Source: an uncultured bacterium (GTDB lineage Bacteria; Fidelibacterota; UBA2242). From it: a DNA stretch of 64,000 nucleotides. This document shows positions 22-58,184 of the stretch, piece after piece (position 1 is the stretch's first letter; every line of letters begins with the position of its first letter). Where the stretch lies: assembly GCA_964589175.1 (NCBI GenBank), contig CAZPRY010000014.1:6779-70778 (forward strand), written 5' to 3'. A model generated the notes under the pieces. It saw only the letters and a list, made by a program, of their open reading frames with translations. It did no database searches and was not told the origin of the DNA. The translations under genes were made by a program, and so were the position numbers.

Positions 22-3000
22 CTATTTGAGCAGCAGCATCTTGCGCACTTTGTCGTAATCATCCGTCTGTAGTCGATAAAAATACACCCCGTTCGACATT
101 GTTTTGCCGGACATATTCCTGCCGTCCCAATCCAGTTGATAGTTACCGGTTGACTGCCTGCCGTCCTGTAAAACCGTCACAACGGCGCCCCTGACATCGA
201 AAACAGCGATCTTCACTCTGCTCTCGTGAGGCAAAGCGTACAAAATCCGGGTCGCGGCGTTAAAAGGATTGGGGAAATTCTGATCCAGCCGGTAATCTGC
301 AGGAAGACCGGTCAAGCCTTCATCCCGAACATCTACCGTGTAGGCAATCTCAAACCAGTCCAGCGACTGCGTCTGCGGCGATTCCTGCGAAAAGCCCCAC
401 CAGGTTCCGGAAACGGAGCCGATCGCCAGCGGATCGAAAGCCAGGAAAACGACCTTGTCATCGTTGAGAGTGCGCGTGACTCCCACGGCCAACGGCGGCG
501 CGGCGGCCAGTGTATCGGTCGTCATGCAAACCCTTGTGCGGCTTTCCGCAAGCGGCTGAAAACCGTCGAGCCAGTTGTCGCGGCCGGTGAGCGTCGCCGG
601 ATTATATTTCAGGGTATCCGCTGCGGCCGTGATCCGGTTATAGAGCGCACCCGTAACGGCATTATTATAAACCGGCGCAAGCGGACTGGCCGTACCGGCG
701 CCGCCCTGATAGTAGGCGCTGACGTCGTTCCATATGCGGCCGATGCCGAGAATATCGAACTCGAAATCGCCGTAGGCATACTCCCGGTTCTGCCAGCCGG
801 ACAGCTTGCCCAGCCACTCGTCCCCGCACAGGAAATAATTCTTCGCTCCCGTTTTCAACCAGTCGCGCACATTCGCGCGGTTATCGAAAAGCGGTCCGCC
901 GGTGGCAATTTCATACACGGTTTTATAGAGCGAAAGGAGCTCGGCGGTCAGGGCTGTATCCCAGACATCATAATGGAAATAAGCCGTATGTTCATTCTCG
1001 AAATCACCCACACCGAAAAACTTCTTCAGGATCGCATCTTTTTCCGCAGCTGTGTTCATGAAAACTAAAATATCGCTCGTCGCAACATAACGGTAGAAGA
1101 CTTTGGGCTTCCGGCCGCGCGGCGGATAGAAGGAGATATCTCCGGCAGCCCTGGCTTCGATGGTCCAGTAGATGCTATCGGCTCCCGCAATTTCAGGAAT
1201 CCCGGCCCGATATATCTGACCTTCGGCCGTCATAGCAACCGACAACCAGTTTTGACCGTTGGAACTGTAGCGCACGACGGCCGATACGTCGTCGCCATCT
1301 GCATCCCGGACACGCGCCTGTACTTCAAATGGTCCGGCGAGCACAAAAGGTCCGGGTCCCTGAACCTCGTCGATCAGCGGCGGCGTCGAAATCTCGAAAT
1401 AGCGGACGATTCCACGGATCAGTTTTCCAAATTTCGTATAACTCGTATCGCCGGCGGCGCTGATCTCGATACCGGCCTGCGGCGCAAATCCCAGGTATAA
1501 AGTGCGATACGTACTCGTCTCTTTCGTACAACCGTACACCTGGCGGTCTTCCGAGCCCTGAAATATCGCTGTCGCGTCATCGCCAATGACAAAATAATCC
1601 GACCAGTAGGCGGCCGGATTGAGCCGCGGCCGGATTGTGTAGCCGCCCAGCGCTGCTGTAAAATCTTTATCAACCGGCGTCTCGTTGAGTCCGTAAAAGA
1701 TCGTATCCACGGGCTGCGGATCGCTGCTGCCCGCGGCAATCCCGAAATAATCGTAGGCGAAATCGCCCACCCCAAATTCCGGCGTCTCACCCTGACGATG
1801 GCTGTAAAACCAGTCGGGATCGATCAAGGCCAGGTCTCCGCCGTTCCTTAAAAATTGTCCGTAGCCGGGATCGGTATCCGACTCCAGCAGCGGGACGGTC
1901 CGCGTCCCCGATCCGCAGACGATGATGTTTTTCGCACCGAATTGAATCACCGATTCATCGATGCCGTTGTGTTCTTCCACGTCCCAGAATTCGTAGACAA
2001 GTCCGGCTTCATCCAGAATCCGCCGATAAAGTCCCAGGCCGCGCTGCTGGTGCTCCGGATTATCGGCGATCAGGAGCAGATCGGCAAACGGATTCTCCGG
2101 TTCAAGTCGCCGGAATAACAACACCGTATTCTCCGCCGAAACGCTCCCCATACGGTCTACAGCTTCGAAATAATATTCGATCTCATCCCCGGGAATCCCG
2201 GGCGGGATCGCCGCCGATAAACTAAAAGTACGGTCGGGATTCTCCGTTACTTCTGCAACAACAGTATCGAAAGGAGCGCCGTTGATGCTATAGAGCAAGG
2301 AAGCCCCGGTCACTCCGCTTTGCAGCGAATCCAGCGCATAATCCGTCGCAACTGCTTCCAATAAAATGCTGCCGGTTGCATAGGTATCGTTCGTCTGTGT
2401 GGCGATTACTGCCGGCGGCGGGTCTTCATAATAGACGACTGCACAGCGAATCAGCGCTTCGAGGCCCGCGGACTTCCCCAAACGTTCCCAATCCTGCGTT
2501 TCGCCTTCGGACGGGAAATAGCCCCAGCTGTGCTGCGGATTTGCATTCCCATCGTCGGCCAGCAAAACGGGAGCGCGCCCGCGTTTGGTGAGCACTACCC
2601 AGAAAGCCTCGCGGCCGACATCGATAACCTGGTTGATGACACTCAGATCGATCCGCTCCCATTGCCCGCTGCCCGCGAATTCCTGTGTGATCACGCTGCC
2701 GATGATCGCATCACCAAACATCTCACCGTCTGCAATAGTATCGGAACCGGTCAGTTGCGGCTTGGCCGATGCCGCTACTTTTCTGACCTCAATGTCGAGC
2801 GTCCCTCCGCCCGGCGGCGCATAAAAACAGAACTCAAGCGCCGAGAGGTAACAGCCGGCAGCAGGCGACTGGAACCAGACCGCGATTTTGTCGCCGGCCT
2901 GGCCGCGGTCGATATAGTATTCCGCAATTTCATCGTCAAAATGATATAAATAAGGCCCGGCTGTGCTTGCAGATCGAACGGCAGGATAGCGCACCCGCCC

Positions 3001-3084
3001 GATCCCGTCCGCGGCCGATAATGCCGTAACGGTAAAGAGTAAAAGGAACAGCAGCCGGCCTGCGATGGAAAATCGAATTTTCAT
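22..3084 (-). CDS. Large secreted T9SS cargo protein of unknown function. N-terminal signal peptide MKIRFSIAGRLLFLLLFTVTALSAADG. Canonical type-A T9SS C-terminal sorting domain (…NFPNPFN…VKIAVFDVRGA…GVYFYRL…KMLLLK). Paralog of 11024..13132, sharing a GDFAYDY(F/L)GI core.
   Basis: 1020-aa ORF. Signal peptide and C-terminal about 85 aa match the Por-secretion CTD consensus (NPF…IYD…G…V…L…G…W…G…GVYFYRL…K). Internal block LLLIADNPEH…VIQFG…GDFAYDYFGIA is shared with the 702-aa protein. Confidence 0.75.
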   Translation of the reverse strand: MKIRFSIAGRLLFLLLFTVTALSAADGIGRVRYPAVRSASTAGPYLYHFDDEIAEYYIDRGQAGDKIAVWFQSPAAGCYLSALEFCFYAPPGGGTLDIEVRKVAASAKPQLTGSDTIADGEMFGDAIIGSVITQEFAGSGQWERIDLSVINQVIDVGREAFWVVLTKRGRAPVLLADDGNANPQHSWGYFPSEGETQDWERLGKSAGLEALIRCAVVYYEDPPPAVIATQTNDTYATGSILLEAVATDYALDSLQSGVTGASLLYSINGAPFDTVVAEVTENPDRTFSLSAAIPPGIPGDEIEYYFEAVDRMGSVSAENTVLLFRRLEPENPFADLLLIADNPEHQQRGLGLYRRILDEAGLVYEFWDVEEHNGIDESVIQFGAKNIIVCGSGTRTVPLLESDTDPGYGQFLRNGGDLALIDPDWFYSHRQGETPEFGVGDFAYDYFGIAAGSSDPQPVDTIFYGLNETPVDKDFTAALGGYTIRPRLNPAAYWSDYFVIGDDATAIFQGSEDRQVYGCTKETSTYRTLYLGFAPQAGIEISAAGDTSYTKFGKLIRGIVRYFEISTPPLIDEVQGPGPFVLAGPFEVQARVRDADGDDVSAVVRYSSNGQNWLSVAMTAEGQIYRAGIPEIAGADSIYWTIEARAAGDISFYPPRGRKPKVFYRYVATSDILVFMNTAAEKDAILKKFFGVGDFENEHTAYFHYDVWDTALTAELLSLYKTVYEIATGGPLFDNRANVRDWLKTGAKNYFLCGDEWLGKLSGWQNREYAYGDFEFDILGIGRIWNDVSAYYQGGAGTASPLAPVYNNAVTGALYNRITAAADTLKYNPATLTGRDNWLDGFQPLAESRTRVCMTTDTLAAAPPLAVGVTRTLNDDKVVFLAFDPLAIGSVSGTWWGFSQESPQTQSLDWFEIAYTVDVRDEGLTGLPADYRLDQNFPNPFNAATRILYALPHESRVKIAVFDVRGAVVTVLQDGRQSTGNYQLDWDGRNMSGKTMSNGVYFYRLQTDDYDKVRKMLLLK

Positions 3085-3507
3085 ATACCCTGTGGCAGCT
3101 TAATTATCATGATCGAAATTGAATATAATGAATCACGGGCTGTGTTCAAATGTTTTCAACTCCGGGGGATTCAATCCGGCTGCAATCCAATTCCTTGTAC
3201 CTATCTCAAATCGAGACTGGGCGCAAAAAAGCAGGTCGAGTATGATACGGGAAGAATCGCGATCAGAATAATCAGAAATCCTAAAAATGCGTTTTGGCCG
3301 AGTTATATTCCGCTTAGCATAGCGATACCGATAAAGAGTCCGAACATGGAAACATAAGCCCAGAAGAAAGGATCTTTGAGAATGAACATAACTTAGCTCC
3401 TGACCTGCAAATATTTTCCGCCCAACGAACTGCATGACCGTCGTTTCTGACCGGGACGCGAAGCGGCGCGGTTTGAAACGTACGAGTCGATGCTATTGTT
3501 GACCAAT

Positions 3508-4797
3508 CTAAAGATATGTTTTCACCTCTTCGTGCTTGCTGGGGTGCATGGAAACGGCTCCAGATCTGCTCGACTTTTCCACGAGTCCAAGTCTCTCCAG
3601 TTCGGCGATAGCCGCGTCAAAATCGCGGACGTTCTTGCAGTAGTGATTGCGGAGCGTTGCGTAGCTGACCGTGTTTCTACCCCAGAACTTCTTCCTATAC
3701 AGTGTGTGCAGCACTCTGCGAGCTTCGGTTGGGAGAGCTTTCCGTGTGGAGAAACCTGCTATCGATTCCTCAAGACTCTCGAGTATAGAATCGTACCCGT
3801 CGATTCCGAAGTAGTGGCTGTGCGTTCGTCGTATCATCGAGACATCAGAAGATCCGACGAGAACGACCTCGAAACCGGAAGGTTCGGCGTACTGATTCTC
3901 AATCCTAGTGTAGGCATCGTATGCCTCCACGGGGTTTTTGGAGATCGGCTCCCAGTTGACGAATTGACCCGAATTCCAGTCGAAGATGAGAATCCAGTTG
4001 TTGAAAGACGATCGGCGACTACGCTCCACTTCGGCAAGGGTGTGGAGAATGTCTTCGTTCACGCGACTGTATAGGAGTTCGCCCCGTCGAGCACGCGCGA
4101 TGACCTCTTCGGCCGCCTCCCGTTTATCATCCAACTCCATCTTCTCCTGGGGCGTCGGTTCCCTGGAACATTCAAGCTCATGGAACACGTGCGAGAGTGT
4201 CTTGAAATAGCCATGAACGATTGGGTCGCCCTCGTTTTCTTTTAGGTGTTGACCATAGATTACTGAGGTCCGCTCTATTGCTTCCGCCCAGTGATGTTGC
4301 GCGCGACTTCGGACCTGTAACTCAATCTTCAAACCAGCACGTTCAAGGATGAGGTGGAGTGCACGGTAGCCGGTGTCATCCCGTCCCAATACGCGGTAGT
4401 CAGTCTCGCGTGAAAGAGTGAGTGTCTTTTCGCCCCGCACCTTCTCTAGAAAGTATTTGCGGAGCCCCTCGACATCAGCATTCGTATCGACAATGACCCT
4501 ATTCCCGCCGATATCCTGAAGTTGAGTCAAACGAACGCTAAAACGTCGCATCTTGCGGAGAATCTGAGGTCGACGCTTCAGCCTCTGCGCGATGTAGAAC
4601 TTCTTGTCCAACTGGGCGAGCCACCCCTGTACGAGGTAAGTGACTTCAGTCAGAGGCTCCAGATGCGCTCTGCGGTAGTCGTCGAAGACGATCTCCGCTT
4701 CGAGCTCCTGGTCTTCAGACTTGAAGACCCCTTTTGCAAGCGCTTGTCCGGAAGAGTCGATCTTTGTCTTTGAGTACATGTGTCCTATGGTCAACAT
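3508..4797 (-). CDS. RelA/SpoT-domain protein: N-terminal (p)ppGpp-synthetase/toxSAS-like nucleotidyltransferase fold fused to a roughly 230-aa C-terminal domain ending in a winged-helix-like segment.
   Basis: Motifs in RelA/SpoT synthetase order: RLKRRPQILRKM (RvKs.eSi..K-like helix), DIGGNRVIV (D-x-x-G-x-R beta strand), GYRALHLIL (GY+S(L/H)H), ELQVRSRAQHHWAEAIE (E-x-Q-x-R…W). The C-terminal LERLGLVEK segment looks wHTH-like. GC is visibly lower than the flanking genes. Confidence 0.7.
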   Translation of the reverse strand: MLTIGHMYSKTKIDSSGQALAKGVFKSEDQELEAEIVFDDYRRAHLEPLTEVTYLVQGWLAQLDKKFYIAQRLKRRPQILRKMRRFSVRLTQLQDIGGNRVIVDTNADVEGLRKYFLEKVRGEKTLTLSRETDYRVLGRDDTGYRALHLILERAGLKIELQVRSRAQHHWAEAIERTSVIYGQHLKENEGDPIVHGYFKTLSHVFHELECSREPTPQEKMELDDKREAAEEVIARARRGELLYSRVNEDILHTLAEVERSRRSSFNNWILIFDWNSGQFVNWEPISKNPVEAYDAYTRIENQYAEPSGFEVVLVGSSDVSMIRRTHSHYFGIDGYDSILESLEESIAGFSTRKALPTEARRVLHTLYRKKFWGRNTVSYATLRNHYCKNVRDFDAAIAELERLGLVEKSSRSGAVSMHPSKHEEVKTYL

Positions 4798-4849
4798 CTG
4801 CTTAAGCAGCCCGGATAACTGCTTTTATACAGATTAATTACTTTGATAA

Positions 4850-5110
4850 CATTCCGGATCACTATGCCGTATCCCTTTGTTTTTCCAATGCTAAGCATAA
4901 ATATTCTACTTGTCAAATGGAATCTTATCATAGTCGGATAAGATCCCGCTTTTGCGTAATATTCCCGGAGCTCGCTACCATACGCAACATAGTTTGCTAA
5001 TATGCGGTAGATAATTTTCTAATGTGCGCATGATAATTTCGTAACCTACGCTAGATAATTTTCTAACGTGCGCATGATAATTTGCTAAGATAGCGTAACT
5101 CTTGAAATTA
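4850..5110. repeat. Island repeat copy A. Roughly 250-bp upstream/leader region of the RelA/SpoT gene, imperfectly repeated at 6722..6900.
   Basis: Shared blocks with copy B: ccggGatcactaYgccRtatcc, ccaatgctaa, tcaaatggaatctt, ccgctt.tgc, and a gcgtaactcttga terminus. Confidence 0.6.
5004..5094. promoter_or_regulatory. Tandem duplication of a roughly 44-46-bp unit (tagataattttctaaYgtgcgcatgataattt…) inside repeat copy A. Each unit carries two direct GATAATTT motifs 24 bp apart. Candidate operator array.
   Basis: Direct reading: gcggtagataattttctaatgtgcgcatgataatttcgtaacctac / gctagataattttctaacgtgcgcatgataatttgctaagatagc. Copy B has a single degenerate version (gcaagataatctgcaaagatacgcatgta). 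Confidence 0.5.
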
Positions 5111-5156
5111 ACGCAGTCGGCACCGATTGTTTGGCCTTTTCTTCCATCCCTGGGAT

Positions 5157-5284
5157 TGTCCCAAAAGTCTGAAAGCGAGTCATCCTGATTCCGTCTGGCG
5201 GGAGAAGGATCTCGTCGAAGACAACCAGATACTTCGACTACGCTCAGTATGACTGATCGGGACCAAAATGTGACTTTTGGGACA
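5157..5284. repeat. 128-bp element bounded by perfect 13-bp terminal inverted repeats (tgtcccaaaagtc … gacttttgggaca) with nested internal inverted repeats. MITE-like element or structured small RNA.
   Basis: The inverted repeats (IRs) are read directly at 5157-5169 and 5272-5284. Internal tcaggatgactc/tcagtatgactg-type pairing and a ccaaaatgtgacttttgg hairpin. Confidence 0.45.
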
Positions 5285-5401
5285 GCCCCAGAATGTTCAG
5301 TCATTTGGGCTTGAGTAACTATCTCAAGATTTCCGCTCCCAAATCAGAGTTTGGGGGCGAGGAGTGAAATTTTAAGACTGACAAATCCTTCGACGATGGT
5401 T

Positions 5402-6556
5402 CTACAGTTGGAGTTGAAAGCTTGTCAGGATCAGGGTATCATCTTTTACGGGCAAACGGTACATCCCTTTATGATAATTACGCGACAATCCCAGAATAAA
5501 TCTTGCGTACATTCTCAATATCGGCACATTCTCGAAGGATAAGCTTGCGGAGTAGCCATAGAGACCTTCATGATAAATTTCTTTTGAATACGATACGCCG
5601 GAACATAATTGAATGTGGAAATCTCTCCCCGAAACTGATTCTGCACCCTTTTTACGGATGTCATCTTTCAGAAAATACAGGGAGCCATAAAAAAGTGCAT
5701 AGGCCAGATCCATTTTATCGATATCGAAATAGCTTTCTAAACCTGCTGAAATAAAATTGAATGGGGTGAATTCATAGTACTTACCTCCGATTTGCCGGGT
5801 ATCCAGAAATTTATAATAATTGAAACCGGGGCTCAGGAATCCCAGATTCTTGCTTAAACGAAAAATCTTTTGAGATTCAAAAAGATCGAACTTGAGTTCT
5901 GAGAAGCTATAAATCGTAAGAATATCAAAACCTTTTTTTCGCACCTGAAGGAACAAATTCTCGTTCTTCTGCTCTGCCCTGCCTATTTTGCCGTCTTCCT
6001 CATCGTAACCATAGTCGAACACTTTCTTCCCTTCGGAATCCGTAGTTATCAGTGGAGACAATTTTTGCATTACTCCGACAATCATTTTGGAATCTTCCAC
6101 ATTGCTTTTTATGATTAAAGTAGACAGTCGGTATTCATTGCTCCAAACTTCCGATGTAGTCGCCCGATAGAGATTTTCACCTATGCCGACTCCCATCGCA
6201 ACGGTTAAAAAACCAACCGAGTAGTTTTGCGAAGATTTTGGCCGAAAATAGAGTGCTCCCGTATAATTCATCATTTCAACATTTTCTTGGCCGGTCGATG
6301 TCGGGGCTATATACGTTGTTTTCGACGTTTTAGTCAGATTGATATCAAACATAAATTTAAGATTTTGTGTTTCAAAGTGACTTTCATATTCCCTATAGGC
6401 CTTGGTTAAATTAAGAGAAGTCCTGGATATCCATTCAAAATATTCCGGGTTGACAAATTCATCTGCGTACAAGTAGCCGGAATAAATTAAATATGCGCAA
6501 AGTAAGCAAGATCCAATCCGAATCCTGTGTGAAAGTGTCATAATGAGCCTCAGCAA
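5402..6556 (-). CDS. Hypothetical secreted, beta-strand-rich protein (possible outer-membrane protein). AT-rich island gene.
   Basis: 384-aa ORF. Hydrophobic N-terminus (…IGSCLLCAYLIYSGYLYA). Y/F/K/N-rich with alternating hydrophobic pattern. Codon usage and GC clearly differ from neighbours. Preceded by repeat copy B. Confidence 0.5.
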   Translation of the reverse strand: MLRLIMTLSHRIRIGSCLLCAYLIYSGYLYADEFVNPEYFEWISRTSLNLTKAYREYESHFETQNLKFMFDINLTKTSKTTYIAPTSTGQENVEMMNYTGALYFRPKSSQNYSVGFLTVAMGVGIGENLYRATTSEVWSNEYRLSTLIIKSNVEDSKMIVGVMQKLSPLITTDSEGKKVFDYGYDEEDGKIGRAEQKNENLFLQVRKKGFDILTIYSFSELKFDLFESQKIFRLSKNLGFLSPGFNYYKFLDTRQIGGKYYEFTPFNFISAGLESYFDIDKMDLAYALFYGSLYFLKDDIRKKGAESVSGRDFHIQLCSGVSYSKEIYHEGLYGYSASLSFENVPILRMYARFILGLSRNYHKGMYRLPVKDDTLILTSFQLQL

Positions 6557-6721
6557 AAATCCCTGTCCGATGATTTATCGAGCTGCCCGGCGTCCTGTGC
6601 CCGGGTGCTGCTTAGCCTAAGTTGAATCGCTCAAAATCGCGCCGATGTCATTCGACCATCTGCGACCCGACACGCAATTGAACAGCGCCCATAACTACTT
6701 GTACACGAAGCATTTGCTCTA

Positions 6722-6900
6722 ATCTGATCCGGGATCACTACGCCATATCCTTATCTGTGCCCAATGCTAATCAGAAAAAATCGACTTTTCAAATGGAATC
6801 TTGTCCCGGCCAAAAATAATTCCGCTTATGCACCTTCATTCACTAGTTTGCGCAAGATAATCTGCAAAGATACGCATGTAAGCCGGCGTAACTCTTTGAG
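6722..6900. repeat. Island repeat copy B, upstream of 5402..6556.
   Basis: Aligns with 4850..5110 (see above). Ends with ggcgtaactctttga. Confidence 0.6.
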
Positions 6901-6994
6901 TCAGCACGGCCGGCGCGGATATTTTAACTTGCGGTTTTGCGTCGGAAACTCACTTCTGACAGTCTTTTCCACGTGGGAACATCCGTAAAATTTC

Positions 6995-7021
6995 AACAAA
7001 AAAGGGCGGGAAAGCCCGCCC
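6995..7021 (-). terminator. Rho-independent terminator of the metzincin gene.
   Basis: Minus-strand gggcgggctttcccgccc hairpin followed by TTTTTTGTTG, 23 bp after the 7044 stop. Confidence 0.8.
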
Positions 7022-7043
7022 TTCGTGAAAGATGGATGCAATC

Positions 7044-10000
7044 TTATTTCATGAAAAGCATCTTGCGCACCGCCGTAAATTCGGGCGCCGTCAATCTATA
7101 GAAGTACACACCGTTGGCGACGCGCTGCCCGTTACGGTCCGTGCCGTCCCAGATCACGTTATAGCGGCCGGCAGCGAAATGCCGGGCGAGAATCGTTCTC
7201 ACCCGGTTACCGCGCAGGTCGTAAATCTCGAGGCTCACCTGCCCGGCCTGTGCCAGGCTGAAGCCTATCTGCGTCAGCGGGTTGAATGGATTCGGGTAGT
7301 TCTGATCGAGGCTGAAAGCAAGTGGTATCGAATTTTCATTATCTACCGCAACGGCGACGTAACTCAGGACAAAAACTTCGAAGGCATCCGAGGCGACCAT
7401 CGCACCGCTGCTGTCGCGGGCGGCAATCGACCACCGATAGGGCAAAACCCGGCCGTATTCGAGGGGATAGCCCGGAAAATCCGCCAGCGTGATTTGTGTC
7501 TGGCTCTCGATTATATTCAGTTTCCTGGTTGTGTCGACAATGGCGGGATCATCGGCAAATAAAGCGAAATCATAGTAAACGGTCTCGCCATCCGGATCGC
7601 CGCCGGACCAGCGGAACAGGTAGCTTGCAGCGCCGCTCTCAAATACCAGCGTATCGCCCCTCACCGGTGAAAGCAAGGCCGGAACTTCGGGTGCATGATT
7701 GATGCGGATTCGAATCATCAACTCTCTGACAGCACTGGTTTGTTCGAATTCACCGTCGCCTGCGATCACCCGCCAGTACAGGATTACATCGGAATCATCC
7801 CCGTAGCGCGACAATAAATTAGCACCGCTGAAAACGAATTCGGAATCGGGATAGACGGTTGCGGAGAAAACCATACCCGTGAAGGCCTGGTCTTCCGCCA
7901 CCTGGAACTCATAATAAACGGGATCGCAATTCGCATCGAACGAAGCATTCCAGCGGAAAAGCCGCATATCTCCTTCCGACTTGATGACCCAATCCGCACT
8001 GTCGACGGGTTCGAGTAACTCGAATTCCTCCGGCGCGGACGGCGGAATCTCAAATTTTATCCGGTATGGTGTAATCGCCGAGGGTGTATAATGGGCGCCG
8101 TCGGTTGCCCAGACAACCGCATAAAGCGTCGCCGTGCCATTCGGACCAACCAGTTCGCAGGGCATTTGAAACGAAAACCCGGCGCTGTCGGTATTGGACT
8201 CCTGGGAAATCAGAATTCCATCGACCAGGCTGCTGTCCGAAGAGATGCGCAAAACATAGGAGATGTCATCGCCCTGCGGATCGACAGCGGCATTCCAGTC
8301 CACCGCTAAATCCAGGTTCAGCGATGTCAATGTATAGACATCGTCCGCAACGGGCAGCGTAATTTCCGCTTTTGAAGGGCTTTGGTTTTCTTCATGAAAC
8401 CAGGCCAGCGAGCGCTGCAGCAGTTGCGTTTTACTGACCATCATCTGCGAACCATCGAAGATATCCTCGAACACAAATCCCGCCACGATCAGGTGCGCAT
8501 CCGACTCGTGCCGGATCATCCCGTAGCCGTTGCTGCCGATCACCTGAAAGACGGGCACCGTGCGCAGGTCGGCATCCGGCAAGAGTACATCTTTCTGCGA
8601 TTCCAGGGTTGTAATCATCATCAGTTGATTTTGCCCAATCGGATCGTCCGTAATTCCCTTTAAATACTGGTTCGCAGACTTCGCCCAAAACGAGCTATGG
8701 AGTTTCTGCCGCAGAAAAACAGAATCGGCCAAAAGACTCCCAACATGGTTACCGCTCAGAAAGAGGTTTCCCGAATTTGTCAGAAGAGAGTCCAGGAGAT
8801 TTTTCTCAGACTGAAAAAATGGGGTCGTTCTTTCCTGATTCAGCCAGAGTACCGTAATTGGCGCCGGAAACGTGGATACCTGTTGCCAGGTGATGAACTG
8901 TCCCTCTTTGAAATTGTCCCAGAGATGGACGGTTGCACCGGCAGACTCGAAAAGCGGCGGGACCATGGCCCAGTCGTCCTCTCCTTCATCGCTGTCGATC
9001 AGCAAAACATCCGCGGGGCTCAGGCGCAGATCATAGACCAGGCCGTCTGACGAAATCGTAATATCCTCTGCACGTTCCTGCGGATAGGGCGGTCGGGGAT
9101 AGACAGCCAGTGAATACCTGCCCTCCGGTAAAGTGGTTTTATAATTCCCGGCGCTATCGGTCAGAACGACCTGCACCGGGATATTGCCGGGATTGGAGGC
9201 GCTGAAAAATTCCAGACGCGCACTGATCGGCATGGCGTTCATCTTGTCGGCGACCAGACCGACTACTTTCACGCCGGGCCTGCTCTGCAAACGGATATCC
9301 ATCGCTATCACTTCTGTTTCTTCAATTCCCCCGGGAGAATTAAAATGTACTTCCTGTACTTCCGAATGATAGAAAAAACAGTTGAATTCCAACTGTATAT
9401 CCTGCGTTAAACTAGTAAACGAAAAACTGCCGTCTGTGCGTACGAAAAGCGAATCCGTGGCGATGTAGCCGGGCCACTCATAGACGGAGCGATCCCCCGT
9501 GCTCACCAATTCCAGGGCCTGCATGCGCACCGCCGATCCGCTCTTGATGAGAATATAACTGCTGCCGAGCGGGGCGAGGTTGGCGGAATCCGCGATGGTC
9601 CCGCTGATTTGCCAGACGGGATAAATCTCGGAAATCCCGGCAACATCCTGCGGGTGAAGGCTGCGCTTAGCCGTATCGCCCGGAGCGCCATATCCGTACA
9701 TGGTCGCTTGGGGAACCAGTTCCCCGACTCCCGGGGGACTGCCATGCTCGCCGGCGTGTCCCAGTCCCAGGTGATGTCCGAATTCATGCGTCACGACACT
9801 CTGCAGATCCATCGTATCGGACGGACAATTATCCGGATTGGAACTGGGCGGGAAATCGCGGGCATTCCAGACCAGATCGGATTCAACCGCATGATAATCT
9901 TCACCTACGCCGTTTGTCCAGGTCATTGAAAAGGCAATCACATCCGTGTTGGGTTCGAAATTCTCGCTGCTGTCATTGGTGTCAAAATAGATCAGGTTCA

Positions 10001-10298
10001 CATTATCGCGGCTTGGCTTCTGCTTTGGGCTTCGTTCTCCCTCTTCAAATACCCAATACGAAGTAGGCACGTTGCTCCAGGTATCGGCAGCGGCCTGGAT
10101 CGCCGTTGTATAATCTTCACTCGTATCGACGTTTAGCTGATACTTAAATGGAAGGTATTGACGGCCGTCCGCGTATTGCAGATATCTCCGGTACGTTCCG
10201 GCAACGTTACTGAAAATCGAAAAAGCAAAGACCATAGTGCTTAGCATCAGCACCAGGCCGATTATTATTATCCCGGTTATGGGTTGGATCTTTTTCAT
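7044..10298 (-). CDS. T9SS-secreted zinc metalloprotease, metzincin/matrixin-like (HEFGHHLGLGH, Met-turn ATMYGY), with type-A CTD.
   Basis: Signal peptide MKKIQPITGIIIIGLVLMLSTMVFA. HExxHxxGxxH motif. C-terminal NYPNPFNP…LEIYDLRGNRV…GVYFYRL…KMLFMK. Confidence 0.8.
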   Translation of the reverse strand: MKKIQPITGIIIIGLVLMLSTMVFAFSIFSNVAGTYRRYLQYADGRQYLPFKYQLNVDTSEDYTTAIQAAADTWSNVPTSYWVFEEGERSPKQKPSRDNVNLIYFDTNDSSENFEPNTDVIAFSMTWTNGVGEDYHAVESDLVWNARDFPPSSNPDNCPSDTMDLQSVVTHEFGHHLGLGHAGEHGSPPGVGELVPQATMYGYGAPGDTAKRSLHPQDVAGISEIYPVWQISGTIADSANLAPLGSSYILIKSGSAVRMQALELVSTGDRSVYEWPGYIATDSLFVRTDGSFSFTSLTQDIQLEFNCFFYHSEVQEVHFNSPGGIEETEVIAMDIRLQSRPGVKVVGLVADKMNAMPISARLEFFSASNPGNIPVQVVLTDSAGNYKTTLPEGRYSLAVYPRPPYPQERAEDITISSDGLVYDLRLSPADVLLIDSDEGEDDWAMVPPLFESAGATVHLWDNFKEGQFITWQQVSTFPAPITVLWLNQERTTPFFQSEKNLLDSLLTNSGNLFLSGNHVGSLLADSVFLRQKLHSSFWAKSANQYLKGITDDPIGQNQLMMITTLESQKDVLLPDADLRTVPVFQVIGSNGYGMIRHESDAHLIVAGFVFEDIFDGSQMMVSKTQLLQRSLAWFHEENQSPSKAEITLPVADDVYTLTSLNLDLAVDWNAAVDPQGDDISYVLRISSDSSLVDGILISQESNTDSAGFSFQMPCELVGPNGTATLYAVVWATDGAHYTPSAITPYRIKFEIPPSAPEEFELLEPVDSADWVIKSEGDMRLFRWNASFDANCDPVYYEFQVAEDQAFTGMVFSATVYPDSEFVFSGANLLSRYGDDSDVILYWRVIAGDGEFEQTSAVRELMIRIRINHAPEVPALLSPVRGDTLVFESGAASYLFRWSGGDPDGETVYYDFALFADDPAIVDTTRKLNIIESQTQITLADFPGYPLEYGRVLPYRWSIAARDSSGAMVASDAFEVFVLSYVAVAVDNENSIPLAFSLDQNYPNPFNPLTQIGFSLAQAGQVSLEIYDLRGNRVRTILARHFAAGRYNVIWDGTDRNGQRVANGVYFYRLTAPEFTAVRKMLFMK

Positions 10299-41819: not shown

Positions 41820-43304
41820 TCAGTTTGCGACGCTGAGAAGCGCGTCCACATAACTGCCCGGATCAAACTCGACCAGATCGTCCAGTTTCTCACCGATACC
41901 GAGGTATTTGATGGGAATATTAAATTTCCGATGGACGGACAGAACGATGCCGCCCTTGGCGGTTCCGTCCAGCTTCGTGAGAATAACGCCGGTAATCCCG
42001 ACTGCGCTCATGAACTCCTGCGCCTGCGCCAGGCCGTTCTGCCCGGTTGTGGCATCCAGCACCAGCCAGACATCCTGCGGCGCTCCGGGAATGACCTTGC
42101 CGATCACCCGTTTGATCTTGCCGAGCTCTTCCATAAGGTTGGATTTGGTGTGCAGACGGCCGGCCGTATCGATAATTACGACATCCTTGTCCCGGGCAAC
42201 GGCGGCTTTCATGGCGTCAAAGACTACAGCGGACGGATCTTTGCCCTGCGGATTGCCCATCAGATCGACATTGGCGCGCTCGGTCCAGACCTGGAGTTGC
42301 TCAAAGGCCGCTGCCCGGAAAGTATCAGCCGCCACAACTAAAACTTTCCGACCGGCAATCGCAAATTTCGCCCCCAGTTTACCGATGGTCGTGGTCTTCC
42401 CGGTACCGTTAACGCCAACAATCAGAATCACGTGCGGTTTGGCGAGTGTGGTCTCACCATGGTTGTCCGATCCCATCAGGGCCTTAATTTCATTCTTCAG
42501 AATCTCGTCCAGGCGGCTCGCCTCCTTGCGGTCCACAGCCCGCAGGCGTTCCATCAGGATCTCCGTAAATTCGACGCCGACATCCGCACCCAGGAGCGTA
42601 TCCTCAATCTGCGCGAGGACATCGGCTTCGATGCGAAAATATTTTCCCAGCAGCGGCAGGCGCGCAGCTATGCTCTTTTCCGTCCTGGCGAGACCGAGGG
42701 TCAGCCGGGATGACGGACCCGCTGGCCGGGTTTCAACTTTCTGATAAGCCTTATGCAGGTAAGTTTGGGCATAAATAATCCAGGAAATCGTCAGGAATAC
42801 CATCGAAGTCAGCATCAATGGCCTCTGCCACGCGATAATATCGTAGAGATACGTCATGATCGTCGCCGCAGTAAGGACGATCGAGACTTTACCGAGGAAA
42901 TTGGCGCGCGGCGTATGACTGCGGTAGCGATACATACAGAAGCCGGTCACGGATATCGTCAGATCACGCAGTAAAAGGAAGGCAAAATAGTAGAGCGGCA
43001 TGTTGCCGTGCAACCATAGAAAAAGCATCACACTGAAGATCACGACCTTATCCGCTATGGGATCGAGCACTTTTCCGTAATCGGTGATGGCGTGGCGTAC
43101 TCGCGCCAGCCAGCCGTCAAGAGTGTCCGTAACAATCGCGACGGCAATATAGATAAGCGCGGTCTTCTTATCTCCGATGTACAGGTAATAGATAATGGGA
43201 ATCGCCAGGAAGGCCCGGAGGATCGAAATGAAATTCGATAATGTCCAGAAACGATTCTGATCGTTTGAGTCAATGGTCGTTGTTGCCTGCGCGATCACAT
43301 TCAC
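41820..43304 (-). CDS. ftsY: Fusion protein: N-terminal CDP-alcohol phosphatidyltransferase (PgsA-like, about 190 aa, polytopic) fused to signal-recognition-particle receptor FtsY N+G domains.
   Basis: The DG(x2)AR(x8)G(x3)D(x3)D motif is present (DGWLARVRHAITDYGKVLDPIADK). FtsY G-motifs are present (GVNGTGKTTT, DTAGR, TKLDGTAKGG). Confidence 0.8.
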   Translation of the reverse strand: MNVIAQATTTIDSNDQNRFWTLSNFISILRAFLAIPIIYYLYIGDKKTALIYIAVAIVTDTLDGWLARVRHAITDYGKVLDPIADKVVIFSVMLFLWLHGNMPLYYFAFLLLRDLTISVTGFCMYRYRSHTPRANFLGKVSIVLTAATIMTYLYDIIAWQRPLMLTSMVFLTISWIIYAQTYLHKAYQKVETRPAGPSSRLTLGLARTEKSIAARLPLLGKYFRIEADVLAQIEDTLLGADVGVEFTEILMERLRAVDRKEASRLDEILKNEIKALMGSDNHGETTLAKPHVILIVGVNGTGKTTTIGKLGAKFAIAGRKVLVVAADTFRAAAFEQLQVWTERANVDLMGNPQGKDPSAVVFDAMKAAVARDKDVVIIDTAGRLHTKSNLMEELGKIKRVIGKVIPGAPQDVWLVLDATTGQNGLAQAQEFMSAVGITGVILTKLDGTAKGGIVLSVHRKFNIPIKYLGIGEKLDDLVEFDPGSYVDALLSVAN

Positions 43305-55284: not shown

Positions 55285-55552
55285 TCAATACTACGGACCC
55301 GGGTAGAAAATTTCCAATGAATCGTCTAATGCAAGAGCCTGAGTAAAAATAATGTTGACAAAGCCCACGAATTGCTCTAATATTTCGCTGTAACCATGGC
55401 AATATTCGAGGCGGATTTGAGCAATTCCCCTTTCTTCGTTTGTTTGCGATCCATTCAGAGGGAATTCTTTATCTTAAATCCGAGTTTCACCGCTCATTTT
55501 TATTGTCCAGCAAACAATTTGGCGAACGAACGGGGGAACGTCGTTTCTACCC

Positions 55553-55775
55553 GGTGGAAGCCCGCTTTATTATGGTGGAAGTTCATTTCCCAGTGGTGGA
55601 AATCCATTTTATTGCGGTCGGAGTCCATTTTCTTATGGTGGAAGTTCATATTATCACCGTCGAAGTCCATTTTCCGATGGGAAAAGTTAATTTCCCTACG
55701 GCGGAGGTCCACTTTTCAATGAGGGAATATCATTTTACAGTGGTCGAAATTCATTTATTCCGGGTGGAATCCAGT
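55553..55775. repeat. About 10.5 tandem copies of a degenerate 21-bp unit (GGTGGAAGTYCATTTYnnnnn).
   Basis: Units read consecutively: ggtggaagttcatttcccagt / ggtggaaatccattttattgc / ggtcggagtccattttcttat / …. Open in several frames (VVEVHF… on plus; KMDFHH… on minus). Confidence 0.8.
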
Positions 55776-55949
55776 CCAGGAGGGAAATGAGCCATTGGAA
55801 GGATGGTCTTTCTCGTTATTTTACTGGTGTCACGCGAGACCGGGGATCAAGGCCCGTCCCGCCAACGGCGGGTCCGTTAGGATTCCTCTGGAGAAACCTC
55901 CGGGAGCTTGGATTTGGAGGGCTATAGAAGTACCTAAAGCGAGGGAATA

Positions 55950-58184
55950 ATGCGAAAACAAATCGCAACGGTTTTCTTATTGTGTGTAATATGTGCCATT
56001 TCAATTTCAATAGCCCACAGCGCTGACGGGAGCGTCTTCGGGATTGTCAAAGCCGCAGGGACGCTGGAACCGCTGGCCTATGTCAATGTCTTCCTGGCGG
56101 ACACCGATCTGGGTTGTTCTTCGGATCGGAACGGCTACTTCACCCTGACAGGCATCGCACCCGGCGATTACCGGCTGTTTGCCACGCATATCGGCTTCGC
56201 GGCTTTTAAAGACTCGATCAAAATCCGGCCCGGAGCAAAATTGTTCGTGGAAATCAGCCTGAAACAGTCCGCGGTGGCAGGCGATACCGTTTCCGTGACG
56301 GGAACCCGGAGATATCAGTCGGGACTGGAAAGCGATCAGATTATGCTCGGCGAGTCCGAACTCAACATCGCTCCCAGGCTGGGCGAACCGGACCTCTTTC
56401 GGGTGATCGAAACTTTTCCAGGCGTTACGACCGTGAATGATTACAATATGGGTTTGTACATCCGCGGCGGCAACGCCGACCAGAACCTGATCCTGCTCGA
56501 CGGCATGCCGATCTACAATCCGTTCCACCTGTCGGGTCTATTCTCGACCTTCGATGAGGAGGCAATCCAGTGGAGCACGGTTTCCAAAAGCGGCATCGAT
56601 CCGGTCTACGGGAACCGCCTGAGTTCCGTCATCGATATCAATATACGGGACGGGACGGCCGGGGAGCATGCGGGCTACGCAAATGTCAGTTTTCTCAGCG
56701 CCAAACTGCGCGCCGAAGGACCGCACCCCTTTGGGACCTACCTGTTCACGATTCGCAGGACCTACGCCGATAAATTTGTGGATTTGCTGCACAAATGGAA
56801 AATACTGGCGTCCGATATGAAATTGCCCTATTATTTTGTGGACGGGATGGGAAAAATCGTAATCAAGCCGGGCGATCGGCAGCGCCTGGAAATCACGTCT
56901 TACCTCGGCCGCGATCTTTATGATATGTCCGTCCTTGACGACAACCCCGGATTGGGGCAATATATCTGGCAGAATTCGGCAACCGGTATGAATTATACGG
57001 CGGTTCTGTCGCCGCAGCTGGCGTTTCATCTCAGAGGAAGTTTCAGCCGTTTTGAAGCCCAATGGCTGCAGCCCGACACAGCCAATTCCGAGCGCATCGA
57101 TAATGTTTTTACCGGCAACACGCTGAATGCCTTTTTCAAATTCGACAATCCTCAGATCGGCCAGGTCAAACTGGGAGCAGAGTATTGTTTCCATCGTTAT
57201 CACCTGCAAACCAAAGGATTCACCTACCAACCGCTCGATTTTAATGAGGACGAGTCCCGCGAGAATTCCATCTTCGCCGATGTATACCGGCCTTTGGGTG
57301 CCCTGTTGTACGTGAGAGGCGGGATTCGGATGACCCATTTTTCGCTGCAGGATACGCTGACCTTTTCGCCGCAGTTTTCCTGCGGTGTGAAGATATCGCC
57401 AAAGCAGGAAATCCAGTTGCATTGGGGTCGCTATCACCAGGATCTGATCACGATCGGGACCGAGGAGGTCATTCTGTCGATGTTCGATGCCTGGGTGACG
57501 GTGCCGCAATATTTCCCGGTGATGGCGTGCACACAGTACGCCTTGAGTTATCAATGCGAAATCCGCCGGCATCTTGAACTGAACGCCTCCGTATTTCATA
57601 AATATTTCAGCAACCTGGTGGAGTACAACACAACCAAATTCTCGACCCTCGACCCGGATTTCGTCAACGGTACCGGGATGGCCAGCGGACTGGAACTTTC
57701 TTTGCGGGGCGTGCTTGGCCCGTTCCAGGGCTGGTTGTCTTACACCTTATCACAGGTCCGGAAGGAGGTTAATGGGGTGCGCTACCCGCCAAAATACGAT
57801 AAACCGCATGACCTTGACCTGATCGTCAATTGCCGGCTTTCGAAGAAATGGTCGATGGGCGGGCGTTTCGTGCTATCTTCGGGAACGCCGTTCACCAAGA
57901 TTATCGCCTACTCACATCAGCCGTTTCTCTCTGCTACTAATGTTATCGGATGTAATGAATTTCCGATATACAGCGAGCGTAACGCCTGGCGCTTGCCGGT
58001 CTATCATCGCCTGGATATCAATTTTATCAAACGGTTCTGCATGTTCTCTCGACCAATGGAATTCTATATCGATGTTGCCAATGTTTATGCGCGTTTGAAT
58101 GTACTTGCTTATACAAGAGATCGCCAGACATGGATTCAGATGCCGCCATTGGCGACGCTCGGGATCAGGGGGAAATTATGGTAA
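55950..58184 (+). CDS. TonB-dependent receptor with CarbopepD_reg-like N-domain (744 aa).
   Basis: Signal peptide. TonB box DTVSVTG. Plug, barrel, C-terminal …GKLW. Confidence 0.8.
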   Translation: MRKQIATVFLLCVICAISISIAHSADGSVFGIVKAAGTLEPLAYVNVFLADTDLGCSSDRNGYFTLTGIAPGDYRLFATHIGFAAFKDSIKIRPGAKLFVEISLKQSAVAGDTVSVTGTRRYQSGLESDQIMLGESELNIAPRLGEPDLFRVIETFPGVTTVNDYNMGLYIRGGNADQNLILLDGMPIYNPFHLSGLFSTFDEEAIQWSTVSKSGIDPVYGNRLSSVIDINIRDGTAGEHAGYANVSFLSAKLRAEGPHPFGTYLFTIRRTYADKFVDLLHKWKILASDMKLPYYFVDGMGKIVIKPGDRQRLEITSYLGRDLYDMSVLDDNPGLGQYIWQNSATGMNYTAVLSPQLAFHLRGSFSRFEAQWLQPDTANSERIDNVFTGNTLNAFFKFDNPQIGQVKLGAEYCFHRYHLQTKGFTYQPLDFNEDESRENSIFADVYRPLGALLYVRGGIRMTHFSLQDTLTFSPQFSCGVKISPKQEIQLHWGRYHQDLITIGTEEVILSMFDAWVTVPQYFPVMACTQYALSYQCEIRRHLELNASVFHKYFSNLVEYNTTKFSTLDPDFVNGTGMASGLELSLRGVLGPFQGWLSYTLSQVRKEVNGVRYPPKYDKPHDLDLIVNCRLSKKWSMGGRFVLSSGTPFTKIIAYSHQPFLSATNVIGCNEFPIYSERNAWRLPVYHRLDINFIKRFCMFSRPMEFYIDVANVYARLNVLAYTRDRQTWIQMPPLATLGIRGKLW

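Follow-up and report, generated by a model that had tools for sequence, protein, structure and literature searches.

A non-coding module with a promoter-like site recurs upstream of unrelated accessory genes in a strain-variable hotspot of an uncultured bacterium

In the 64,000-nucleotide stretch of DNA analyzed here (the window), copies of one imperfect direct repeat precede two unrelated accessory genes, one copy each, and the locus thus raises the question of what this repeat is: the mark of modular gene cassettes, a re-used control region, or a repeat without function. When the two copies, A and B, were aligned by using MAFFT, the conserved blocks listed in an earlier note on this sequence were all common to both copies and occurred in identical order, and the copies were 66% identical overall. 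A blastn self-comparison of the window matched 4802-5006 with 6678-6874 (205 nt, 66% identity, E 3.6e-20) and also returned a second match between 5033-5132 and 6816-6925. The local-alignment score of A against B was 61, compared with 10.4 ± 1.4 for 500 dinucleotide shuffles (z ~36); the repeat described in the earlier note is therefore real, and far better aligned than shuffled controls. Moreover, the exact 19-mer GGATCACTAYGCCRTATCC occurred 2 times in the 64-kb window, against 0.03 expected, and an nhmmer search with the module profile found only copies A and B in the window and a further 6.5 kb of flank. The repeat is somewhat longer than first described (4850-5110 and 6722-6900), with copy A extending from about 4793 to 5135 and copy B from about 6669 to 6930, where A-like sequence was detectable down to ~6678. 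Copies A and B measure 260-340 bp; for the modules overall, 260-480 bp is quoted.

Given that the neighboring genes all lie on the minus strand, each copy is situated 5′ of a gene. Each module lies in the gap between the end (or terminator) of the preceding gene and the start of the next one. The features of the locus are as follows.

3166..3190, minus strand: right edge of the hotspot, where homology with strain L033 resumes (comparison with L033)
3508..4779, minus strand: gene for a RelA/SpoT-type nucleotidyltransferase with a C-terminal HTH_36 domain, CapRel-like; PADLOC candidate PDC-S33
4793..5135, minus strand: module copy A (alignment, boundary and unit comparison)
4815..4824, minus strand: proximal AAGCAGTTAT motif in copy A, similar to the distal AAGAGTTAC; the 3′ junction is ~25 nt farther on
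4856..4874, minus strand: conserved 19-mer GGATAYKGCNTAGTGATCC of copy A, 10 nt past the -10 box and a candidate for an operator or leader element
4888..4916, minus strand: promoter-like site of copy A, TTGACA (4911-4916), 17 nt, TAGCAT (4888-4893); 10/12 consensus positions
4979..5088, minus strand: five 22-bp units head-to-tail, TTAGnAAATTATCnnGCGnAnn on the minus strand (TRF and unit split)
5095..5103, minus strand: distal AAGAGTTAC motif of copy A (motif scan)
5133..5361, minus strand: 229-bp segment with 20-nt inverted arms (5150-5169, 5272-5291), between the ORFan and copy A
5402..6541, minus strand: ORFan of 379 aa with an N-terminal signal peptide, ~40% G+C (ORF and domain scans)
6669..6930, minus strand: module copy B, with parts in the same order as copy A and a shorter array
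6691..6700, minus strand: proximal AAGTAGTTAT motif of copy B (motif scan)
6732..6750, minus strand: conserved 19-mer GGATAYKGCNTAGTGATCC of copy B, an exact match (alignment)
6764..6792, minus strand: promoter-like site of copy B, TTGAAA, 17 nt, TAGCAT; 9/12 consensus positions, aligned in position with that of A
~6824-6845, minus strand: degenerate 22-bp unit of copy B (unit split)
6846..6868, minus strand: sole well-preserved 22-bp unit of copy B, TTTGCAGATTATCTTGCGCAAAC (unit split)
6888..6896, minus strand: distal AAGAGTTAC motif of copy B (motif scan)
7001..7024, minus strand: intrinsic terminator of the upstream M10 peptidase gene, at the left edge of the hotspot

Copy A precedes the CapRel-like RelA/SpoT gene, which matches PDB 7ZTB. 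The open reading frame reaches 4797, but its start is probably the ATG at 4779, because homologues begin with MYSKTKID. Copy B precedes the signal-peptide ORFan, for which no homologues were found outside its own 90% cluster and for which single-sequence AlphaFold2 gave an unusable model (pLDDT 31). As such, two diverged copies of a non-coding module precede two unrelated accessory genes. No module follows the RelA/SpoT gene in 3166-3507, and the right edge of the hotspot lies 82 nt (script) to 96 nt (blastn) upstream of the ATG of the type IX secretion system (T9SS) cargo gene at 22-3084. Elsewhere in the window, the scanned open reading frames are for core functions, TonB-dependent receptors or T9SS cargo.

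In minus-strand order, copy A starts with a 5′ boundary block, which is followed by a single AAGAGTTAC unit and then by the five 22-bp units; next come the promoter-like site, the 19-mer and a leader that ends at a sharp junction near 4793. The conserved blocks of the earlier note correspond, on this strand, to the -35 and -10 boxes of a σ70-type promoter-like site. The promoter prediction that the note had proposed thus yielded a σ70-like site in both copies, facing the downstream genes. When 3000-7200 was scanned with the consensus, the top-scoring match (10/12) was the one inside copy A; on the minus strand, the intergenic region before the ORFan contained no promoter candidate other than the site in copy B. 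The -35 and -10 boxes and their flanks were invariant in 4/4 aligned copies, with the 17-nt spacer and the +1 region variable. The aligned copies number four (A, B and the variants A′ and A″ described below) and come from one species-level lineage, and so shared recent ancestry, rather than selection, could account for their conservation. Sites of the form TTGAMA, N16-17, TAnAnT are present in other intergenic regions of the window, and the Bacteroidota-type TAnnTTTG motif was not found in those examined; the predicted module promoter therefore fits the promoter type of the host. The promoter-like site rests on a consensus match, and such sites exceed expectation locally (15 in the scanned region, against 6 expected).

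Downstream of the 19-mer, the leader continues for roughly 60 nt to the junction and holds a second AAGnAGTTAT motif. The predicted leader of copy B is ~215 nt long, of which 128 nt (6542-6669) before the ATG are non-module sequence. No leader peptide or antisense open reading frame in the module was common to both copies.

The earlier note had described a tandem 44-bp duplication in copy A with paired GATAATTT motifs. Tandem repetition is indeed present, but it is an array of 22-bp units: TRF reported period 22 with 4.8 copies at 4983-5088 (score 100), and a unit-by-unit split gave five units spanning 4979-5088, of which the GATAATTT motifs are part. In the variant A′, AAGAGTTAC occurs five times at a spacing of exactly 21 bp. 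When the array content of the four copies was compared, the numbers of AAGAGTTAC units and 22-mers were 1 and 5 in A, about 1 and 2 in B, 5 and 4 in A′, and 1 and 3 in A″; A′ and A″ differ in their units though their flanks are 99.55% identical. Moreover, the motif AAG(N)AGTTAY was found at both ends of every module, with 7 occurrences in the window against 1.7 expected, 4/7 of them inside modules. The 22-bp array lies ~60-170 bp upstream of the -35 box, and the arrays taken together ~60-330 bp upstream of it, rather distant for the site of a simple activator or repressor.

Several candidate identities were considered for these units. The suggestion of Crp/Fnr-type sites failed: the GATAATTT units are direct 22-bp repeats without a palindrome and carry one GATAAT hexamer each, which speaks against Crp/Fnr and Fur sites alike. 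A Xer/dif site was likewise rejected by comparison with the consensus; the XerC arm matched at 9/11 positions, but the XerD arm was absent and the 22-bp phasing is unlike a 28-bp site. Phased A-tract curvature was also discarded, the array lying at the 9th percentile of the window in a wedge model, itself a weak test. The tandem units matched none of the binding motifs against which they could be tested, and no regulator gene was found. As a lead only, AGAGTTACG agrees at 7/9 positions, with 21-bp spacing, with the AgrA (LytTR) site; no LytTR gene was found among the open reading frames scanned in the window.

Comparison with related strains showed that the locus is a small strain-variable hotspot with a type IX secretion cargo gene on either side. 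In strain L016, whose flank is 98% identical, a third module copy (A′) is joined, at a shared sharp 3′ boundary, to a different gene, which encodes a 132-aa membrane protein. The promoter cores of A′ and A agree at 93% of positions, and homology between the two ends at position 4793 of the window, which leaves 14 nt to the RelA start. Because nearly the same core thus stands before different genes, module and gene are separable and not one traveling cassette. A sharp common 3′ boundary and motifs at both ends would also suit a recombination site. The upstream region of a 78% identical RelA/SpoT homologue (L001-L006) is unrelated to the module; this ruled out a module tied to the RelA/SpoT gene and indicates that the module belongs to the locus. 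Neither the L016 nor the L053 strain has the 229-bp segment found here at 5133..5361. L053 breaks off within the fourth copy, A″, and L033, from the same sample (ERZ27248954), begins 25 codons into PDC-S31. In L033, the hotspot holds PDC-S31 and a YafQ-type toxin-antitoxin pair, and no module precedes that pair at the hotspot. Judged by such matches (PDC-S33, the 7ZTB match, PDC-S31 and the YafQ-type pair), the contents of the hotspot are defence-like.

These comparisons qualify two statements of the earlier note. That each island gene has its own copy is true of the two unrelated window genes and of the L016 gene, but not of the L033 toxin-antitoxin pair. That the repeats mark modular cassettes bringing their own leader and promoter agrees with the promoter-like site and with a third copy before a new gene, but the separability of module and gene speaks against a cassette as the unit.

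Searches beyond the locus yielded little. A scan for the 19-mer across GTDB representative genomes, which do not include the source genome, gave 6 matches, all attributable to chance and with dissimilar flanks. When part of the JGI metagenome collection was scanned with the -35/-10 pattern, 4 loci were found, 1 of them genuine; this was the L016 contig, which comes from a sample where this organism occurs. The related strains that were found come from ENA assemblies in the ERZ272488xx-ERZ272489xx range and from JGI samples 3300028162, 3300028168, 3300028169, 3300028193, 3300028276 and 3300028299. In viral sequences, the 19-mer, the promoter pattern and two 8-mer arrays matched only by chance or in unrelated tandem repeats, and blastn of the module against 72,556 plasmids and 50,697 phages gave no match. 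The module family thus appears, so far, confined to one uncultured lineage.

Taken together, and with a little better than even confidence, we interpret the repeat as a non-coding module of promoter and leader, with a probable regulator-binding array, that is re-used in a strain-variable accessory (phage-defence) hotspot of a bacterium with type IX secretion. The module would run, in order, from the 5′ block through 1-5 AAGAGTTAC units at 21-bp spacing, 1-5 22-bp ATTATC units, a spacer, the promoter, the 19-mer and the leader, and whichever gene follows the junction (PDC-S33, the secreted ORFan protein or the 132-aa membrane protein) would be transcribed from the predicted module promoter. From the sequence we infer promoter activity, regulator binding and the route of recombination as follows. 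The tandem units and the 19-mer may be binding sites of one trans-acting regulator, probably a repressor, and sites on both sides of the promoter could permit cooperative binding or looping and so bring the hotspot genes under common control; a shared regulator of the module genes, also raised in the earlier note, is plausible. Unit number would shift by slippage or unequal recombination. The copies would have arisen by duplication, and the downstream genes would have been swapped by recombination, with no dedicated recombinase evident. If this interpretation is correct, the locus offers a clean natural case of promoter re-use, with one module before interchangeable accessory or defence genes in a hotspot without an integrase, and a testable system for the ready-made, co-regulated expression of new and potentially toxic defence genes such as the CapRel-like one; the relation of tandem-unit number to expression would also become addressable. 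Nothing known is overturned by the module, and the promoter re-use here is real yet fairly ordinary.

Other explanations were weighed against this one. BOX elements of Streptococcus pneumoniae (boxA-boxB(n)-boxC) vary in internal unit number, can affect the expression of neighboring genes, form stem-loops and occur in more than 100 dispersed copies. The modules resemble them as modular intergenic repeats with a variable internal unit number, and could be decaying duplicates or a small non-autonomous repeat (BOX- or Correia-like) without function, in which the promoter boxes are incidental or inherited. That there are two copies at the locus with 66% identity, that homologues are limited to one lineage and that promoter-like matches are common in this AT-rich stretch would all suit such an origin. 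We consider it unlikely, given that the divergence is patterned (the -35, the -10, the 19-mer and the end motifs are invariant and the spacers have drifted), that all variants keep a consistent orientation and spacing relative to their downstream genes, and that neither terminal inverted repeats nor target duplications were found at the module. Unlike BOX, moreover, the two copies share one locus in the 64 kb plus 6.5 kb covered and have no notable secondary structure, and the scan of part of the JGI collection gave a single genuine contig, from a sample where this organism occurs. A more active role for the 3′ boundary was also considered, namely that the modules are recombination platforms (attI/attC-like), in which a distant site-specific recombinase binds AAGAGTTAC-type motifs and inserts or swaps promoterless genes at that boundary. 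Integron attC sites are imperfect palindromes of 57-141 bp that lie 3′ of promoterless genes and need IntI. The modules share with integron arrays (attC, Vibrio VCRs) direct repeats between co-oriented unrelated genes, sharp junctions and defence cargo; three module variants lose homology at one point and then continue into three unrelated genes, the RelA/SpoT gene retains just 14 nt of its own leader, related motifs stand at both module ends with a 21-nt AAGCAG unit apparently cut by the junction, and the locus is strain-variable. Unlike integron repeats, however, the modules are 260-480 bp long, contain a promoter-like site and lie 5′ of genes with no IntI nearby, and the last gene of the hotspot, like the L033 toxin-antitoxin pair, breaks the pattern by having no module after (or, for the pair, before) it. 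The internal repeats are direct, not inverted, and no attC-like hairpin was found on either strand (ssDNA fold z -2.0 and -1.4 for A, 0.0 for B). No integrase or recombinase was found by Pfam in 39 window open reading frames, a scan that covered all but seven at 44.7-49.2 kb, and the only mobile-element gene seen was an ISL3 transposase fragment in L016. We regard recombination platforms as quite unlikely, and a cassette mechanism of the integron type, with neither recombinase nor attC-like structure found, is not supported.

A known analogue, recombinase-associated and with repetitive intergenic sequences, is rAID-1 of the Bacteroidales, in which a conserved recombinase of the XerD family heads arrays of as many as 31 orphan immunity genes (Ross et al., bioRxiv 10.1101/471110). 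Compared by description, the present locus shares co-oriented accessory or defence-type genes, a low-G+C cluster, an integron-like look and repetitive intergenic sequence between the genes, but it differs in having no recombinase among the scanned open reading frames, only two genes, and an M10 peptidase and a T9SS cargo protein as flanks; its cargo is not immunity genes but PDC-S33 and the ORFan, and elsewhere PDC-S31 and the YafQ-type pair. An extended version, in which the module is the promoter-bearing landing pad of an IntI-independent cassette system, with a distant recombinase using AAGAGTTAC-type 21-bp units at both ends to insert promoterless defence genes at the 3′ boundary and with unit number tuning or phase-varying expression, would be a long shot. 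Iteron replicons and some par loci classically have four to five contiguous 22-bp direct repeats with a promoter after them, and the arrays might accordingly be imagined as iterons or centromere-like sites of an integrated plasmid-like replicon. As in theta plasmids (pPS10, R6K, P1, F), 4-5 contiguous direct repeats with 21-22-bp spacing lie near a promoter, and TRF and the L016 AAGAGTTAC units gave at least 3 direct repeats of 17-22 bp at this spacing; the downstream RelA/SpoT protein also has an HTH_36 winged-helix domain. This origin is nonetheless very improbable: there is no Rep family match and no Par or mobilization gene, the plasmids and phages searched had no similarity, several chromosomal copies precede three unrelated genes with the RelA/SpoT homologue elsewhere having none, and two or three "origins" in 2 kb of chromosome are implausible. 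Finally, the module might act not as DNA but through an RNA, structured or repetitive, such as an antitoxin repeat of the type III kind or a leader that regulates in cis; the tandem repeats in front of a toxin-like gene (toxSAS-type) and the conservation of the leader after the predicted start site could suggest this. We give this the least credence of all. Rfam 15 returned no family at gathering score, and at the weakest level nothing at E<1 except ATPC (22 bits against a 45-bit gathering score); the leader fold (z -1.5) and the module folds were unremarkable, and no conserved small open reading frame was present. In type III (ToxIN-like) systems, a tandem repeat array is transcribed from a position between the promoter and the gene of an endoribonuclease toxin; here the arrays come before the predicted promoter, they also precede non-toxin genes, and the downstream proteins are not ToxN-like.

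The favored interpretation, a re-used promoter and leader module, has a counterpart in the putative mobile promoters (PMPs) of Matus-Garcia, Nijveen and van Passel (2012; summarized in PMC3575422), which are defined at -150 to -50 from the start codon, where sequences before non-homologous genes of the same genome share 80% identity or more along 50 nt or more. Both are similar non-coding sequences with a promoter before non-homologous genes, and in both the route of mobilization is obscure. The best 50-nt window between A and B coincides with the promoter-like site, where 40/50 positions are identical, just at the 80% level, and the downstream genes are unrelated. This window lies ~100-160 nt upstream of ATG 4779 in A and ~210-270 nt upstream of ATG 6541 in B. 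Unlike PMPs, copy B is farther upstream, at about -225 to -250, and the copies are adjacent in one hotspot and have variable tandem arrays and defined boundaries.

Pairwise alignment of the two non-coding modules, copies A and B, placed every block named in the earlier note in identical order. The local alignment score was 61, compared with 10.4 ± 1.4 for 500 dinucleotide shuffles, and a window-wide blastn search matched 4802-5006 to 6678-6874 (205 nt, 66% identity, E 3.6e-20) and, as a second match, 5033-5132 to 6816-6925. The 19-mer block GGATAYKGCNTAGTGATCC occurred twice in the window, against 0.03 occurrences expected. The repeat upstream of two unrelated genes is thus real, and its bounds are slightly wider than first proposed. 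Searching the window and all fetched loci with an nhmmer profile of three copies gave no further copy. All credible genes around the modules lie on the minus strand (sequence 3500-9000 and ORF list).

Features of the locus, in window coordinates
22-3084, minus: T9SS cargo protein (Pfam)
3508-4797, minus: RelA/SpoT-domain protein with a C-terminal HTH_36 domain (Pfam)
about 4793-5135, read on the minus (gene) strand: module copy A (alignment, blastn)
4916-4888, minus: promoter-like site of copy A, TTGACA-17-TAGCAT (consensus scan, 10/12)
5402-6556, minus: ORFan, 384-codon ORF (ORF list)
about 6669-6930, read on the minus (gene) strand: module copy B (alignment, blastn)
6792-6764, minus: promoter-like site of copy B at the aligned place, TTGAAA-17-TAGCAT (consensus scan)
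7024-7001, minus: clean intrinsic terminator ending the upstream M10 gene
7044-10298, minus: M10 peptidase with a T9SS sorting tail (Pfam)

Read in reverse complement, the blocks tcaaatggaatctt and ccaatgctaa give the -35 box and the -10 box. The promoter-like site of copy A was the top match of the consensus scan over 3000-7200, and the most similar 50-nt window between A and B (40 of 50 identical) coincides exactly with the predicted promoter. When A, B and their counterparts in the sister-strain contig L016 were aligned, the hexamers and their immediate flanks were invariant across the four copies, and the 17-nt spacer and the next 10 nt were variable. The 19-mer, whose right half is invariant, lies 10 nt past the -10 box. 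Upstream of the -35 box stand 22-bp ATTATC units and, farther upstream, the AAGAGTTAC motif and the boundary block AAATATCYGCGCCGRCCGTGCT; each module also has a motif related to AAGAGTTAC, AAGnAGTTAT, some 25 nt short of its 3′ end. This motif class occurs seven times in the window (1.7 expected), four of them at module ends, which is a post hoc pattern. The tandem repetition once described in copy A as a 44-bp duplication is present, with a unit of 22 bp (TRF, 4.8 copies, score 100; five units when split by eye), and what had been offered as an operator pair of possible Crp/Fnr type is in fact this variable array rather than a site of that type; copy B keeps one good unit of it. TTGAMA-N16-17-TAnAnT sites are present in other intergenic regions of the window, and the Bacteroidota-type TAnnTTTG motif was absent from those examined; the module promoter thus fits the apparent promoter type of the host. 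Some ten 21-bp units (GGTGGAAnTYCATTT...) in head-to-tail order make up a second array with two-helical-turn periodicity at 55540-55780 (plus strand), where they fill the intergenic region before a TonB-dependent receptor gene (55950-58184); part of the run, 55566-55680, is listed by TRF. Except for a TCCATTT-like core, this array is unrelated to the module.

The RelA/SpoT protein matched the PADLOC candidate PDC-S33 (E 2e-56) and, over residues 2-326, PDB 7ZTB and 9ERV ("RelA/SpoT family protein", E 1e-12). 7ZTB is CapRel-SJ46, a fused toxSAS defence protein, and both entries mark the RelA/SpoT-HTH_36 protein as CapRel-like. Since its homologues, found in many phyla, begin MYSKTKID, the true start is probably the ATG at 4779 (gene 3508-4779, minus). 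Desulfosarcina, Hydrogenimonas, Marinobacterium and Agrobacterium have close homologues (50-78% identity), a spread suggesting that this gene is a single-gene defence candidate that moves horizontally. The ORFan protein (5402-6541, minus; 379 aa) carries a signal peptide, and its G+C content is about 40%, compared with about 54% in the flanks. It had no match in Pfam or PADLOC, and 5.8 billion clustered proteins included no homologue beyond its own 90% cluster; its single-sequence AlphaFold2 model was unusable (pLDDT 31).

Exact-protein look-ups returned many contigs of the window strain (99.6% identity or more) and several of sister strains. Because the upstream region of a 78%-identical RelA/SpoT homologue (L001-L006) is wholly different, the module, as judged by this comparison, belongs to the locus and not to the RelA/SpoT gene. 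L016 is 98% identical to window 7746-5361 and then carries a third module variant, A'; L019 is identical to L016, and L055 also matches it. The promoter core of A' is 93% identical to that of A, and its array holds five AAGAGTTAY units at exact 21-bp spacing plus four 22-mers. Homology between A and A' ends abruptly 14 nt short of the RelA start, at window position 4793, and the similarity of B to A fades near the same aligned position. Past this junction, L016 continues with a membrane ORF of 132 aa and then the end of an ISL3 transposase (positions 2974-3503 of L016). Contigs L053 and L054 have one AAGAGTTAC unit each despite 99.55% identity to the L016 flank (L053 has three 22-mers), so the arrays expand and contract between near-identical strains. 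L033, which shares a sample with L053, places the right edge of the variable region at about 3166-3190 of the window; upstream of that edge (positions 1-1298 of L033) lie a PDC-S31/DUF2971 gene and an 80-aa/93-aa toxin-antitoxin pair of YafQ type, with no module between them. The locus is therefore a small hotspot of defence type, flanked by two conserved T9SS cargo genes, in which modules stand before some genes and not all. A 229-bp segment between the ORFan and module A (5133-5361), with 20-nt inverted arms at 5150-5169 and 5272-5291 and an RNA fold z of -2.65, is found only in the window strain, whereas the strains of L016 and L053 lack it at that place; the segment is perhaps a small MITE-like insertion or a 3′-UTR structure.

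Three lines of evidence argue for a re-used promoter and leader module: conservation is patterned, with hexamers kept while spacers drift; the module keeps its orientation and placement before three different downstream genes; and its promoter agrees in type with that of the host. The 21-22-bp periodicity, equal to two helical turns, together with related motifs on both sides of the promoter and a 19-mer just past the predicted start site, suggests that a common regulator binds the module; in the simplest form, this would be a repressor silencing potentially toxic hotspot genes. A purely structural role of the array found no support in a curvature model. Decaying duplicates without function would be compatible with just four variants, all from one lineage, but fit poorly with the block-wise conservation. 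Reading the module as a type III antitoxin-like or leader RNA is countered by wrongly positioned arrays and by the lack of structure and family signals, including any Rfam match. The array layout does match that of plasmid iterons; however, a Rep gene and plasmid similarity are both lacking, and unrelated genes follow the arrays.

A recombination platform should be kept in view, given the sharp 3′ boundary common to the modules and the motifs at their ends. Against it, no recombinase was found among the window ORFs scanned, attC-like folding is absent, no module lies 3′ of the last hotspot gene, and the same hotspot holds module-less genes. The interpretation in the earlier note is partly right: the promoter-bearing module stands and its shared regulation is plausible, but the "cassette" idea has no recombination machinery behind it. 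There is a small chance that the module serves an undescribed cassette system as its landing pad. None of three integron membership features tested held for the module. Bacteroidales rAID-1 clusters resemble the locus in that repetitive sequences occupy the spaces between co-oriented genes of defence type, but two other features define them, a XerD-family recombinase and immunity-gene cargo (bioRxiv 10.1101/471110); the former was absent from the window ORFs scanned and the latter is absent here. Among described categories, the nearest is the "putative mobile promoter", in which similar upstream regions precede non-homologous genes (PMC3575422); the identity between A and B just reaches its threshold, and of the two only copy A lies roughly at the required distance from the start codon. 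The re-used promoter or intergenic repeat is of a known kind, here in a variable defence hotspot.

A 19-mer scan of GTDB representative genomes gave chance matches only, the source genome not being among them, and viral scans and plasmid and phage blastn searches returned no relatives. A promoter-pattern scan of JGI metagenomes returned one genuine contig (L016) and three chance matches from a clearly incomplete collection, since JGI contigs of the window strain that a protein look-up recovered (e.g. L025) were not returned. The minus strand carries all 32 genes predicted in 22-55284 of the window, a stretch of about 55 kb; among them are tig, clpP, secA, nusB and a PorV-like gene, and several encode large products (at least 1000 aa), namely T9SS cargo, TonB-dependent receptors and proteins with no Pfam match. 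In a single 494-aa ORF (41820-43304, minus), a CDP-alcohol phosphatidyltransferase domain at the N terminus (residues 20-171) is joined to FtsY-like SRP54_N and SRP54 GTPase domains; the ORF represents either an uncommon fusion or a pair of genes run together by a missing stop codon.
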